Shown: piece after piece, positions 1 through 64,000 of the stretch
How the letters are laid out: each line of letters starts with the position of its first letter
Numbering within the stretch: the first letter of the stretch is position 1
Origin: a phage
Reading direction: 5' to 3' (one strand)
Assembly: GCA_024683775.1 (NCBI GenBank)
Contig: GCA_024683775.1_4106.1
Length of the DNA: 64,000 bases
Translations under genes and position numbers: made by a program
Notes under the pieces: generated by a model
Told to the model about the DNA's origin: nothing
The model's input: only the letters and a program-made list of their open reading frames with translations
The model's database searches: none

Positions 1-64
1 AATTAATCAGTGTAGATGATGAAAGTATCGATCTATTCACTTCATATAACTAATACGAGCTTCT

Positions 65-484
65 ATGAAAACAATCAAAACACATTTCAAAGACACGTGG
101 ACAGAAGTAAGTACTGGTAATATTCAAGATATTTTATACAGTACTGAAACTATTCATGTCTATGACGAAGAGACAGCAGCGGAGCAGTTAAAGGTATTGC
201 ATCGTAGTGTAGGTGAACACACCGAGTACGGTGTTAAACATACTCGTGAATTGGTAAGTACTGATCATATTGACACCTGTACTGTAAATCTATCAAAAGA
301 AGAAATGTTTGATTTTATTCTAAACAATACTTTAGCAATTCAACCAGATGGATCACTATACAGTAAAACAGATGGTACACAAGTTCATAAAAAGTACAAT
401 GTGACCATCAATGATACGGTGATGTCTGGATATGATTTAGTTGATGCAATCAACGAGTACGTTTCTATGCAGAGGTTGAAATGA
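65..484 (+). CDS. hypothetical protein
   Basis: 139-aa ORF at head of the + strand gene chain; stop overlaps next start. Confidence 0.5.
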   Translation: MKTIKTHFKDTWTEVSTGNIQDILYSTETIHVYDEETAAEQLKVLHRSVGEHTEYGVKHTRELVSTDHIDTCTVNLSKEEMFDFILNNTLAIQPDGSLYSKTDGTQVHKKYNVTINDTVMSGYDLVDAINEYVSMQRLK

Positions 485-846
485 TTAATCTGATATATTT
501 TACAATTATTTGTTGCATTACTATTGTACTTTGTCGTCTAATTCATGTATACTCATATCATAAAGCGTTGAGAATCGAACAAGAGATTTACAACGAAAAC
601 CGTGAGCCAGAGCCAGAGAAGCTACCCCGCTCACCATATGCATTGAAGCGTGAGATGCATTCGGTGAGTAAGAAGTGGGGTTATGCAATAACCAAGCATG
701 GTTATATCGACACTGCTGCAAATGGCTATTTTCAAATTCACTATGATCTTTCAGTTGCGATTGGAATTTTATGGGAAATGGAGGATATAGGTGGTTATGA
801 GCGTACTAAATTTCCAAACTTACAAAATGATCCAGGAACTTCATGA
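481..846 (+). CDS. hypothetical protein with N-terminal hydrophobic segment
   Basis: 121-aa ORF, ATGA overlap with upstream gene. Confidence 0.45.
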   Translation: MINLIYFTIICCITIVLCRLIHVYSYHKALRIEQEIYNENREPEPEKLPRSPYALKREMHSVSKKWGYAITKHGYIDTAANGYFQIHYDLSVAIGILWEMEDIGGYERTKFPNLQNDPGTS

Positions 847-1000
847 AGAACATGATATAATTATAGATGTAGAAAAGAAGGAAGTTGTTATGAAGAAGCA
901 AGCATATCGCATCTTAGACAACTTCTATCTTAAGGCATTTATAATGAAGTTCTGTGCAGACGAGCACTTAACAGGACGTGTTATACGCAAGGAGTCGTAG
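791..1000 (+). CDS. hypothetical small protein (start uncertain, possibly internal Met at 827)
   Basis: 69-aa ORF overlapping the previous gene in another frame. Confidence 0.3.
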   Translation: MVMSVLNFQTYKMIQELHEEHDIIIDVEKKEVVMKKQAYRILDNFYLKAFIMKFCADEHLTGRVIRKES

Positions 1001-1342
1001 ATGGACATGAGTTCAACAATTCAGTACTTGAGCGAGAATTTTGTCAAAATCATTTCACGTGGTGGTATGATTGTGCATCCTGAAACTGAAGATATGTATA
1101 TCATTCGTTTTGATGCAAATTCTTATGATCAAGTACTTGTTGTTTCGAAATTAGTAGGTTATAATGAAGTCGTTCAGTTCTGCTGTACTGAGTTCGGTAT
1201 CTATATTAAAGATGCAGAAACCAATGAGATTTCACATTATTTTTATCACACACTGATGGGTACTAAAGATTTTGGATTGAAATTCAATGATTTAGTACAA
1301 TGTCACTATATGTTTAAAACATACCCAGCATCTGGGAAATAA
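1001..1342 (+). CDS. hypothetical protein
   Basis: 113-aa ORF in + chain. Confidence 0.5.
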   Translation: MDMSSTIQYLSENFVKIISRGGMIVHPETEDMYIIRFDANSYDQVLVVSKLVGYNEVVQFCCTEFGIYIKDAETNEISHYFYHTLMGTKDFGLKFNDLVQCHYMFKTYPASGK

Positions 1343-1353
1343 GGAGTAACAAT

Positions 1354-2169
1354 ATGAGCAACATTTTCTTCAAAACCATTTCCTTCAAAAAAGAATCTTA
1401 CTCTTACGCTTATGTAGATGGTAAAGTACTCAATATCGTTCTAGATGGTGTTGATGTACCTGTTCAATTTACCAGTCATCAAGAAGCGATTGAGGGTGCT
1501 CAAGAGCTTAACAGCTTACTAAATGGTATTGAGAAGAAACCTGAAGTTAAATCTGACCTTGATTTATTGGTTGACAAAATTAAAAGTGGTGAACTATTAT
1601 CAATTCTAGACCAGTGTAATGAAAAATTACGTGGTGTTGTTGGTGATGTACGTACTACAGTTCAAGATCGTCTACTTGAGCAAGCATTCAAAGAAGTTAC
1701 TAAGAAAACTGAAGAACGTGTTGAAGGTATGATTAAAAACATTGATGACGTTCTCACTCATATGTTCACCAAGCCATACGAATCAAGTACTGATTCTGAA
1801 GAGAAACAAGAAGAACCAGTAGAACGCACCAAGCCATCTATTGTTACTAAAGTTAAACATAGTTTTGGTTCACTGGATGATGTATTTGGATTTACAAATG
1901 TACGTGTTAGTACTGATGAAAAGCCAGAAGTTGATGAAATGCTAATTGGTGACATGACAACTGGACAACTCAAAAAAGAGATTGATACCTTTGTTAATGA
2001 ACTAATTAGTTCTGAACGTGCTGAAAATATGTTTAGCAGTATTTCAGCAAACTTCGGCAAAGAAGCAACTGAGCAAGCAGTACAGGCATTCAAAGATTTG
2101 ATTTACACTGTTGCAATTGCTAATCCAGAACAAACACTGGAAGAAGTTCTACGTAAAAACTTCAAATAA
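1354..2169 (+). CDS. hypothetical acidic protein
   Basis: 271-aa ORF preceded by AAGGAG-like RBS; followed by hairpin terminator. Confidence 0.6.
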   Translation: MSNIFFKTISFKKESYSYAYVDGKVLNIVLDGVDVPVQFTSHQEAIEGAQELNSLLNGIEKKPEVKSDLDLLVDKIKSGELLSILDQCNEKLRGVVGDVRTTVQDRLLEQAFKEVTKKTEERVEGMIKNIDDVLTHMFTKPYESSTDSEEKQEEPVERTKPSIVTKVKHSFGSLDDVFGFTNVRVSTDEKPEVDEMLIGDMTTGQLKKEIDTFVNELISSERAENMFSSISANFGKEATEQAVQAFKDLIYTVAIANPEQTLEEVLRKNFK

Positions 2170-2182
2170 GATATAGATAAAA

Positions 2183-2212
2183 GAAAAGCCACTACAATGT
2201 AGTGGCTTTTTT
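2183..2212. terminator. bidirectional intrinsic terminator between convergent genes
   Basis: GCCACTAC-AAT-GTAGTGGC hairpin flanked by an A-run upstream and TTTTTT downstream. Confidence 0.65.
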
Positions 2213-2213
2213 G

Positions 2214-62919: not shown

Positions 62920-63159
62920 ATGGCTAAATCAAAAAAGTTCTTAGGTCACAAAAACAAAACTCATTGGAATGTAAGCCTTTGGATTAATAACGATGAGGGA
63001 TTGTATCGGTTGGCCCTGGATTTTATTAACGACAACACTAATCGCAATGATGCGGCCCGTCATATGATGTTATTTTTAGAACAGACTGGACAAGATAAAA
63101 CACCGGACGGATTCAAATATAGCACTACTGCGATCCGTGCGGCAATGGTTGGAATGTAA
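62920..63159 (+). CDS. hypothetical small protein (higher-GC module)
   Basis: 79-aa ORF with AAGAGG RBS. Confidence 0.5.
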   Translation: MAKSKKFLGHKNKTHWNVSLWINNDEGLYRLALDFINDNTNRNDAARHMMLFLEQTGQDKTPDGFKYSTTAIRAAMVGM

Positions 63160-63244
63160 TAGAATTTATTTAAAGTACTATCATTTTTTGCGATAGTACT
63201 TTATAATAGTGTTTTATTCATACACCAACGATAAGGGCAACAGC

Positions 63245-63511
63245 ATGAATATTAAGTATTTTGCGACGCGTGAACAAGCTCGGATCGCCGCACGCCAGGA
63301 CGGGGCAACGTTTAAAGATATGGGCGTACAATCGGAACGTGGTAAACGTTGGGCCATTGTAAAGCGTAGTACCGCCAGATCATTACAGTACTGGTTAGCG
63401 GCCTTAAAAAGTCCCGATAGTGTATCGCGTCGAGTGGTAGAAATAAAGCTCGACCGAAAGGGCAACCGCGTGACCGTGTACCGTACTAAAAAGATTGCAG
63501 TACTTGAATAA
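63245..63511 (+). CDS. hypothetical small basic protein (higher-GC module)
   Basis: start set at MNIKYF (63245); inverted repeat AGTACTATC...GATAGTACT and TATAAT upstream. Confidence 0.45.
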   Translation: MNIKYFATREQARIAARQDGATFKDMGVQSERGKRWAIVKRSTARSLQYWLAALKSPDSVSRRVVEIKLDRKGNRVTVYRTKKIAVLE

Positions 63512-63517
63512 AAAGTA

Positions 63518-63546
63518 CTTGCTAACTATGTTTAAAGGCGTATAAT
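63518..63546 (+). promoter_or_regulatory. module-specific promoter, copy 3
   Basis: GTACTTGCTAACTATGTTTAAAGGCGTATAATG followed by hairpin GCGGGAA-CTC-TTCCCGC. Confidence 0.55.
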
Positions 63547-63598
63547 GTTTTACATCGAGAGCGGGAACTCTTCCCGCCTATAACCTGGAGTAATAAAA

Positions 63599-63829
63599 AT
63601 GACTAATATGTATATGACTGAAGTTAAAACCGTAAAAGATACTACCACGAATAAAACTACTTACTTACAGCGGATCTGTGGTGTATGGCAACGTATCAGC
63701 AAATCAAAGTACTTTAAATTAACATCATATGCAAATCGTTCGGATTCATTCAGTACTGAAATAAAAGGTAATAAAGTACACCAATACGGCACTTATTATT
63801 ATTACAGCCTGGACGCGATTGCAGTATAA
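63599..63829 (+). CDS. hypothetical small protein (higher-GC module)
   Basis: 76-aa ORF with GGAG RBS. Confidence 0.5.
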   Translation: MTNMYMTEVKTVKDTTTNKTTYLQRICGVWQRISKSKYFKLTSYANRSDSFSTEIKGNKVHQYGTYYYYSLDAIAV

Positions 63830-63859
63830 GCAGTTTACAAATCTTTACAATTGCCGGTA

Positions 63860-63888
63860 TTGACTTATTTTGTCAGTACTGGCATAAT
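63860..63888 (+). promoter_or_regulatory. sigma70-like promoter TTGACT-N17-CATAAT
   Basis: hexamers read directly near the window end. Confidence 0.4.
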
Positions 63889-64000
63889 GTATTCATTGGC
63901 AGATAAGCCGTAGCCCATAGGGTGCGGGAGTGTATCTATAGAAAAATTAGTTTAGTATAGTTACAATTGTGCACCCGGTGGGTTAGCTGTTGTCATGGGG

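Follow-up and report, generated by a model that had tools for sequence, protein, structure and literature searches.

Phages are textbook examples of palindrome avoidance, and the short DNA words that are commoner in an organism's own DNA, such as Chi (read by RecBCD) and the DNA uptake sequences, are asymmetric and strand-polar. Multi-copy operators are known from mycobacteriophage L5 (the 'stoperators', which are asymmetric and oriented), from P1 (the C1 operators) and from IncP (the KorA/KorB sites); they are 12-17 bp long, occur in about 10-30 copies and are mostly intergenic. The sites of SlmA and Noc number tens per chromosome. Among cellular genomes there is HIP1 (GCGATCGC), the highly iterated palindrome of cyanobacteria, which is inferred to be selected and whose function is unknown (PMC5861425). 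A link between HIP palindromes and orphan methyltransferases has been proposed in cyanobacteria (PMC4390886). Here we describe the palindrome AGTACT in a stretch of phage DNA of 64,000 nucleotides (contig GCA_024683775.1_4106.1 of assembly GCA_024683775.1), referred to below as the window, and in the relatives of that phage. AGTACT is maintained by purifying selection on the DNA itself, and this trait is restricted to one clade of phages. A full-text literature search found no paper that connects AGTACT with this clade, nor one describing a hyper-abundant palindrome in any phage; published promoter analyses of the phages CBB and GAP32 do not mention it.

The window has a G+C content of 35.4%. 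It is 98-99% identical to the Escherichia jumbo phages EC.P1, fEgEco12, WPEC3/5 and others; its identity to phage 121Q is 80-90%. Given this closeness, it is a member of the 121Q/PBECO4 group (genus Asteriusvirus) of myoviruses, which are related to T4 and have genomes of 350-385 kb. An exact search finds 218 AGTACT in the window, against 22.8 +/- 4.9 (maximum 36) in dinucleotide-preserving shuffles and 21.8 expected from mononucleotide composition. The roughly tenfold excess claimed in the original prediction, which was made from the letters alone, is therefore real. The eight sites that it listed in the first 2 kb, where about 0.7 are expected, lie at 110, 140, 257, 1023, 1132, 1425, 1786 and 1909, at most 4 bases from the positions it gave. 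Among all 4,096 hexamers AGTACT is an extreme outlier (9.5x); the runners-up, CAGTAC and GTACTG, are its own extensions, and the next-ranked palindromic hexamer reaches only 1.7x. For the octamer CAGTACTG the count is 48 where 1.1 is expected, and there are 15 copies of TCAGTACTGA. The density is 2.4-2.9/kb in the genes of the first 55.5 kb, 7.8/kb between 55.5 and 60.4 kb, 10.5/kb between 60.4 and 62.4 kb and 5.6/kb from 62.4 to 64 kb.

The whole genome of 121Q (348,532 bp) carries the same excess. It holds 903 AGTACT, against 99.8, 181 and 349 expected under Markov models of order 1, 2 and 3, so that the genome-wide ratio is not near 1. Every 10-kb bin contains 11-65 copies where about 2.9 are expected, and CAGTACTG is found 194 times against 4.4. 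Density along the 121Q genome is U-shaped, with peaks toward both genome ends and a minimum in the late structural modules.

Could the encoded proteins account for these numbers? Genes were called by greedy selection of open reading frames. The 83 confident genes of the window contain 114 AGTACT, against 34.8 +/- 4.9 when synonymous codons are shuffled within each gene and 23.3 when codon order is shuffled; the excess in frames 0, 1 and 2 is 3.0x, 4.5x and 3.5x. The 542 genes of 121Q contain 732, against 208 +/- 12 (maximum 245) after the synonymous shuffle, and by frame 355, 147 and 230 are seen where the shuffle leaves 110, 37 and 61. An explanation by codon usage, for which the original prediction had left room, fails in both data sets. 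Along genes the density does not change between start and stop, and non-coding DNA is richer than coding DNA (6.9 vs 2.9/kb in the window; 4.55 vs 2.38/kb in 121Q). Codons and dipeptides are skewed in the same direction: in the window genes Ser-Thr is spelled AGT-ACT in 44% of the dipeptides where 15% is expected, and the dipeptides ST and VL are enriched 1.4-1.5x, TS and LV far less. It appears that a signal in the DNA has shaped the choice of codons as well as that of dipeptides. AGT is the commonest Ser codon in these genes, its use being inflated by the motif, and 121Q has a gene for the tRNA-Ser that reads AGT (anticodon ACT; record 75464-75555). The local peak at 55.5-60.4 kb is raised by an array of paralogous mini-genes, in which AGTACT recurs in the EYY and (E/A)VLKLI codons. 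Repeated genes are not the cause of the excess, since the paralogue-free region of 1-33 kb still has 2.9 sites/kb.

The sites are also conserved. Over 40.5 kb in which the window and 121Q are 85.7% identical, 88 of 119 AGTACT are unchanged (74%), compared to 47% of all hexamers; this ranks AGTACT 8th among 201 frequent hexamers, above the -10 hexamer TATAAT (68%). Between 121Q and the Klebsiella phage RaK2 (73% identity), 20 of 44 sites are kept (45%), compared to 17% of hexamers (rank 14 of 615). About two thirds of the RaK2 sites are not common to 121Q, meaning that sites turn over while the density holds. Synonymous retention was followed in the codons AGT, ACT, TAC and GTA where the amino acid is conserved. 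In the shallower comparison 89/99 such codons are retained inside the motif and 477/622 outside it (odds ratio 2.7, p=0.002), and at deeper divergence 43/51 (84%) and 257/493 (52%), respectively (odds ratio 4.9, p=6e-6). The one-mismatch neighbours of AGTACT stand at 1.2-2.1x (AGTATT/AATACT at 1.43x), the sole low pair being AGGACT/AGTCCT at 0.44x. Repair of the very-short-patch type, converting neighbours to AGTACT, predicts that they be depleted, and we rejected it on this ground. Taken together, the excess in all frames and in non-coding DNA, the positional conservation, the synonymous retention and the undepleted neighbours support the view, put forward in the original prediction, of a positively selected signal at the level of DNA.

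How widely is this trait distributed? RaK2 belongs to a different genus, and a 40-kb segment of its genome with replication and structural genes has 92 AGTACT against 8.8 expected. We surveyed the clade through 21-kb IMG/VR loci around the major capsid gene. Relatives with a capsid identity of at least 85% all have a 3-7x excess, and those at or below 69% mostly have none; Agrobacterium phage Atu_ph07 (capsid identity 59%) has 3 sites against 3.8 expected. The early region of an unrelated E. coli phage, a phapecoctavirus, has 4 against 6.9, which rules out an effect common to coliphages or due to the host. In 50 kb sampled from E. coli K-12 there are 3 sites, or 0.06/kb; the phage density of 2.6-3.4/kb is about 50-fold higher. 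Since the excess is without counterpart in distant relatives, in the unrelated coliphage and in E. coli, it is a trait of one phage clade, that of the enterobacterial jumbo phages RaK2 and 121Q, and not of the host or of coliphages generally. A weaker excess, about 3x, is seen in three further IMG/VR loci, L020 (72% capsid identity), L025 and L048, which together span 66-72% capsid identity and have normal GCGC. The trait may therefore be older, or more widespread in an attenuated form, and it may be separable from the loss of GCGC described next.

The tetranucleotide GCGC is absent from the window (0 vs about 35), from the 348,532 bp of 121Q (0 vs 153-178) and from the RaK2 segment (0 vs 15), and its count is zero in every IMG/VR locus of the AGTACT-rich clade (L008-L017). 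More distant relatives and the phapecoctavirus have GCGC at normal frequency, and in the E. coli sample it occurs at 6.8/kb. This absence suggests absolute selection, for example by a phage-encoded nuclease directed at GCGC or by a pervasive host system. AGTACT (2.6-3.4 vs 0.06/kb) and GCGC (0 vs 6.8/kb) together split phage from host DNA almost perfectly. They are separable traits, since lineage L020 combines a 3x excess of AGTACT with normal GCGC. Other words are avoided as well. Classic restriction-site avoidance stands beside the excess of AGTACT: GGTACC, CGTACG, CTGCAG, CAGCTG, TGGCCA, GCATGC, GGATCC, GTCGAC and other GC-rich palindromic hexamers have zero counts in the window, among them sites that share the GTAC core. 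The most depleted hexamers of 121Q are TAAATA (139 vs 389) and TATTTA (92 vs 312), which is consistent with avoidance of spurious late promoters of the T4 type (TATAAATA).

Genome-wide, the information in the motif resides in the hexamer and the two bases next to it, C at -1 and G at +1, which contribute 0.34 bit each and are present at 44-47% of the sites. In non-coding sites T is also favoured at -3/-4 and A at +3, which yields an extended box TTCAGTACTGAA, and the half-site variants NGTACT/AGTACN are about 2x enriched. Some sites have a fixed place in promoters. A subclass of early promoters has the form TTGACA-N10-AGTACT-G-TATAATG, with the palindrome beginning 7-8 bp ahead of the -10 hexamer; 121Q has 23 such cases among 118 strong sigma70-like promoters, and the window 4 among 22 (Table 1). 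Pairs of AGTACT exactly 20 bp apart number 9 where 2.5 are expected (z=4.3). In four of these nine cases the pair forms part of a promoter, one site being fused to the -35 element and the other abutting the -10. The 20-bp dual-site architecture, like that of the promoter-like element at 63174, recurs in 121Q. Promoter sites make up about 3% of all AGTACT. An element acting at the level of RNA was considered and rejected: the window has no tRNAs, Rfam gives no credible match to it (one below threshold only), and sites lie in promoter spacers too.

The richest part of the window lies at a genome terminus. Nucleotide 1 of fEgEco12 aligns to position 60,675 of the window (96% identity over 3.3 kb), from which it follows that 60,675-64,000 is the start of a direct terminal repeat of about 21 kb. 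This is expected to be the DNA that is first into the cell. The non-coding tract before the small genes of the terminal repeat has 21 sites, 13 of them in the form CAGTACTG, and holds 8 of the 15 TCAGTACTGA boxes of the window. A tandem 53-bp array in it has, in both repeat 1 and repeat 2, one TTCAGTACTGAA that is followed 13 bp downstream by a second AGTACT; in repeat 3 the second site is mutated to AGTTCC. The original prediction had placed AGTACT in promoter spacers, in boxes of the noncoding region and in the hairpins of an array. The spacers, the TCAGTACTGA boxes and the array of three 53-bp repeats are all there, but the hairpins come down mainly to one inverted repeat with a 14-bp stem. 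Two other features of the terminus are mentioned here for completeness. The window spans the junction of the unique region and the terminal repeat, and a short GC hairpin, GGCAGAGGAAGTCTGCC, is found at the very end (60679-60695). Repeats with a period of 8 bp that resemble iterons (GGCTAGAC, GGCTAAAC, GGATGGCT) run from 61453 to 61580 and are followed by an AT-rich tract; they may serve as an origin of replication or as an array of protein-binding sites within the leader.

Table 1. Positions of AGTACT-bearing elements and of the main gene blocks in the 64-kb window
Feature	Position	Strand	Basis or remark
AGTACT, 218 copies, favoured form (C)AGTACT(G)	1..64000	.	exact search
Consensus sigma70-type promoter TTGACA-N16-TATAAT; spacer AGTACT at 61055-61060 abuts the -10 (AGTACT-G-TATAATG)	61040..61067	+	
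Same AGTACT-in-spacer sigma70 subclass; AGTACT at 11523-11528	11508..11535	+	
Same AGTACT-in-spacer sigma70 subclass; AGTACT at 15485-15490	15470..15497	+	
Same AGTACT-in-spacer sigma70 subclass; AGTACT at 26848-26853	26833..26860	+	
Promoter-like TTGACA-N17-TACTAT; spacer AGTACT at 55534-55539; upstream of mini-gene array	55521..55549	+	sequence reading
Promoter-like TTGACT-N17-CATAAT; spacer AGTACT at 63875-63880	63860..63888	+	
Promoter class with AGTACT fused to the -35 (AAAGTACTTGCA ... GTATAAT)	62374..62408; copies 62834-62869, 63511-63546	+	
Dual-site promoter-like AGTACT-N15-AGTACT-T-TATAAT, sites 21 bp apart, without good -35	63174..63207	+	
Two CAGTACTG boxes (60627-60632 and 60648-60653), 20-50 bp outside the repeat boundary on the unique side	60627..60653	.	
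Non-coding leader at the physical left end; 18 AGTACT, mostly (T)TCAGTACTGA(A)	60675..62407	.	fEgEco12 alignment
CAGTACTGAT/ATCAGTACTG box pair, inverted repeat with 14-bp stem	61197..61230	.	
Three tandem 53-bp repeats	62201..62359	.	
Small early or middle genes	1-33 kb	+	
Sigma70-family sigma factor	8146-9111	within the 1-33 kb gene block (+)	domain scan
About 17 tandem RCC1-like paralogues, about 375-450 aa	32962-55470	-	relatives' annotation 'regulator of chromosome condensation'
About 24 tandem paralogous mini-genes, 59-81 aa, family phrog_11711	55575..60372	+	just before the terminal-repeat boundary
Non-coding tract	60.4-62.4 kb		
Small genes, one promoter apiece	62.4-64 kb		

A comparison with the systems mentioned at the beginning is instructive. 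AGTACT resembles HIP1 in being a short palindrome in massive excess throughout a genome, present between genes and within them in all frames, conserved above background (which speaks for selection and not for biased repair), specific to a lineage and of unknown function. It differs in being viral rather than located on a cellular chromosome, in its different, AT-rich sequence of six (effectively eight) bases, and in the size of the excess (about 10x, compared to 15-300x for HIP1). Furthermore, AGTACT is without an evident cognate methyltransferase and is coupled to the purging of GCGC. It clusters at a terminus and has a fixed register in early promoters, while a role of HIP1 in gene expression was not supported (PMC5861425).

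With the sites of SlmA (GTGAGTACTCAC) and Noc (ATTTCCCGGGAAAT) it shares dyad symmetry and dispersal over a replicon, where a dimeric reader marks DNA rather than regulating one gene (PMC3020112). The likeness to SlmA, a nucleoid-occlusion factor of E. coli, extends to the sequence, as its site also has an AGTACT core. The 12-bp SlmA consensus is GT(R)AG(Y)(R)CT(Y)AC, with strict G1, T2, A4 and G5 and a purine at position 3 (PMC3020112). The phage has about 900-1,200 AGTACT copies per genome, and its flanks prefer T-T-C; the flanks that SlmA requires are absent, none of the 903 cores of 121Q or of the 218 of the window being compatible. We therefore rejected SlmA sites as an identity for the motif. 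Like the multi-copy operators, which provide global control by a single protein, AGTACT is one recognition sequence reused across a mobile genome, promoters included, but 83% of its roughly 900 copies are inside genes and its core has only 6-8 bp. The 50-fold contrast in density between phage and host is reminiscent of Chi and the uptake sequences. AGTACT is, however, a perfect palindrome without strand polarity, and machinery that reads it is without known example.

Several enzymes of these phages act on DNA or may modify it. Adenine and cytosine methyltransferases are encoded by each clade member checked (121Q, RaK2 and CBB), and an enzyme of the Dam family (PF05869) is among the domain matches. 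The C5 cytosine methyltransferase of 121Q (gene 91, 286 aa, record 62483-63343) aligns end to end with the catalytic domains of mammalian DNMT3A/B/C, which are also its best matches of solved structure, ahead of M.HaeIII and M.HhaI; its high-identity homologues are found in part of the clade only. We rejected it as a reader of AGTACT: it is DNMT3-like and of the CpG type, and AGTACT has no CpG. At AGTACT sites that have diverged between the window and 121Q there is no C-to-T excess at the motif C. The Mom-like modification gene of RaK2 was likewise set aside, as it has no homologue in 121Q or in the window. For RaK2 DNA both CpG methylation and resistance to many restriction enzymes have been reported (PMC3622015). 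The DNA of fEgEco12 is cut as predicted by ten enzymes, methylation-sensitive ones included (ScaI is not among the ten), which argues against a blanket modification.

What might AGTACT be for? The fixed register in promoters and the clustering at the terminus favour a role in protein binding or regulatory marking. Our preferred explanation, to which we give somewhat short of an even chance, is that AGTACT forms the core of the site recognised by a dimeric, sequence-specific DNA-binding protein peculiar to the clade, encoded by the phage or borne in the virion, that tags phage DNA. Both the reading of AGTACT by a protein and the effect of its binding are what we infer from the sites. The extended TTCAGTACTGAA boxes, presumably of high affinity, are massed in the 1.7-kb stretch that opens the terminal repeat, in the DNA expected to enter the cell first. 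At boxes that occupy -19 to -14, abutting the -10, or that are fused to the -35, or both, binding would modulate the host RNA polymerase, and early genes would in this way be controlled over time. The core sites, about one per 300-400 bp across genes, might serve as a positive mark of 'self', some 50-fold denser than in the host. The lack of any GCGC in the phage, a word that abounds in the host, would be the mirror image of this positive mark.

A number of observations weigh against such a protein. About 97% of the sites lie outside recognisable promoters, so that a purely regulatory role cannot explain the bulk of them. Where short-range spacing was examined, there was no regularity beyond the 20-bp pairs (coefficient of variation 1.18). 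The information is almost wholly in the hexamer, with only about 0.34 bit at each adjacent position, which is typical of restriction and modification more than of an operator of 12-16 bp. A protein bound every 350 bp or so within genes could hinder transcription and replication. Scans with Pfam and PHROG revealed no helix-turn-helix-type or other relevant candidate binder or nuclease in the proteins sampled from the window and 121Q, most of the proteome being unscanned.

A more elaborate suggestion can be made in which both words are signals. The densely spaced AGTACT would mark DNA as the phage's own for a protein of the phage or virion, whose task would be to protect, organise or activate phage DNA as it comes in and replicates. 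GCGC, purged from the phage but present about every 150 bp in the host, would be a negative tag for a phage nuclease that destroys host DNA. We regard this two-signal code as decidedly unlikely. Somewhat better placed, though still unlikely, is the main rival of the binding-protein model, in which AGTACT is the target of a sequence-specific modification by the phage, such as adenine methylation by the PF05869 Dam-family enzyme or by an unrecognised modifier, and is kept as a self-mark or as a switch coupled to replication. Sharply hexameric recognition and a uniform spread across genes are what such an enzyme would give, and methylated promoter spacers could couple promoter activity to replication, as is established for Dam-regulated promoters. 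The methyltransferases of 121Q, RaK2 and CBB, the resistance of RaK2 DNA to restriction (PMC3622015) and the precedent of HIP1 (PMC4390886) are in its favour as well. Several observations count against it: the C5 methylase is short and DNMT3-like, with high-identity homologues in only part of the clade, methylation in RaK2 is at CpG, the motif C shows no C-to-T excess, the Mom-like gene of RaK2 is missing from 121Q, and fEgEco12 DNA is cut normally by ten enzymes, of which ScaI is not one. Moreover, modification alone leaves unexplained why sites are enriched and not neutral, why the flanks are graded and why half-sites are enriched. AGTACT might instead be the preferred site of action of a DNA-processing enzyme (a T4-type topoisomerase II, a primase, a terminase or other end-recognition activity, or a site-specific nickase), enriched for efficiency on a genome of 350-380 kb. 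The phage encodes topoisomerase II subunits, primase and terminase, dyad symmetry suits enzymes that make staggered cuts in two strands, density peaks toward both genome ends, and sites mass on both sides of the terminal-repeat boundary, where concatemers must be processed. No sequence preference is known for these enzymes, and primases recognise trinucleotides that are abundant by chance; some 900 dispersed copies speak against a specific packaging signal, and the fixed promoter register is not predicted. We consider this improbable.

The remaining explanations are weaker. If AGTACT recruited or titrated a DNA-binding protein of the host (Enterobacterales), be it SlmA or another regulator, the confinement of the trait to phages of Enterobacterales would be understandable. 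We know of no other host factor with an AGTACT site, and an unrelated coliphage of the same host lacks the enrichment (4 vs 6.9). As for SlmA, its consensus contains AGTACT (PMC3020112), yet compatible cores number 0/903 and 0/218, and a host factor is in our opinion quite improbable. A neutral by-product of biased mutation or repair, such as very-short-patch-type correction toward AGTACT, is an explanation that we hold to be very improbable. Repair biases of this type do explain some over-represented words of E. coli, and the substantial turnover, with about two thirds of RaK2 sites unshared with 121Q, could be expected of a neutral process. Against this stand the fixed promoter positions, the clustering at the terminus, the conservation of sites and of their synonymous positions well above background, and the behaviour of one-mismatch neighbours, whose predicted depletion is not seen (AGTATT/AATACT at 1.4x and the outer variants at about 2x, only AGGACT/AGTCCT being low at 0.44x). 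Finally, the excess might be sought in a protein or translational preference, that is, in Ser-Thr, Val-Leu or x-Tyr-x motifs, in paralogues or in the phage tRNA-Ser(ACU). AGT is indeed the most-used Ser codon, ST and VL dipeptides are about 1.4-1.5x enriched, the paralogous mini-genes reuse the motif in their EYY and EVLKLI codons, and 121Q has the tRNA-Ser(ACT). The frame and shuffle tests refute this and leave it practically no probability: when protein sequence and codon usage are kept constant, shuffling lowers the number of sites 3.3-3.5-fold, each of the three frames shows the excess, AGTACT is denser in non-coding than in coding DNA, and paralogue-free 1-33 kb keeps its 2.9 sites/kb. 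The bias in codons and dipeptides is more plausibly an effect of the motif.

A few features of the window deserve mention in their own right. The RCC1-like paralogues differ strongly in copy number among relatives, and a gene of 219 aa (phrog_29152) sits within the mini-gene array. The early gene at about 62869-63164 (79 aa, phrog_871) is about 84% identical in nucleotides to genes of Phapecoctavirus and of rV5-like phages, which are unrelated coliphages; this match indicates a recent horizontal exchange into the terminal repeat. A fusion of promoter and terminator recurs on the + strand at 17249, 20843, 21622, 24383, 29007 and 29590. In it, a GC hairpin, GGGTTGACTTCGGTCAGCCC, has the -35 element TTGACT in its 5' arm and is followed by a T-rich spacer and TATAAT.

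About 1,000 selected copies of a palindrome per genome, reshaping codon and dipeptide usage, imply an unrecognised system that reads DNA genome-wide. The phages that carry it are widespread jumbo phages and candidates for therapy. They also offer a tractable viral counterpart to the 25-year-old puzzle of HIP1, with a small genome, a culturable phage and sites that can be recoded or used in pull-downs. One practical prediction is that restriction systems of the ScaI type, whether present, missing or inhibited, should weigh heavily on the host range of these phages. A genome that is rich in AGTACT and free of GCGC could reveal how phages without bulk base modification discriminate between their own DNA and that of the host.

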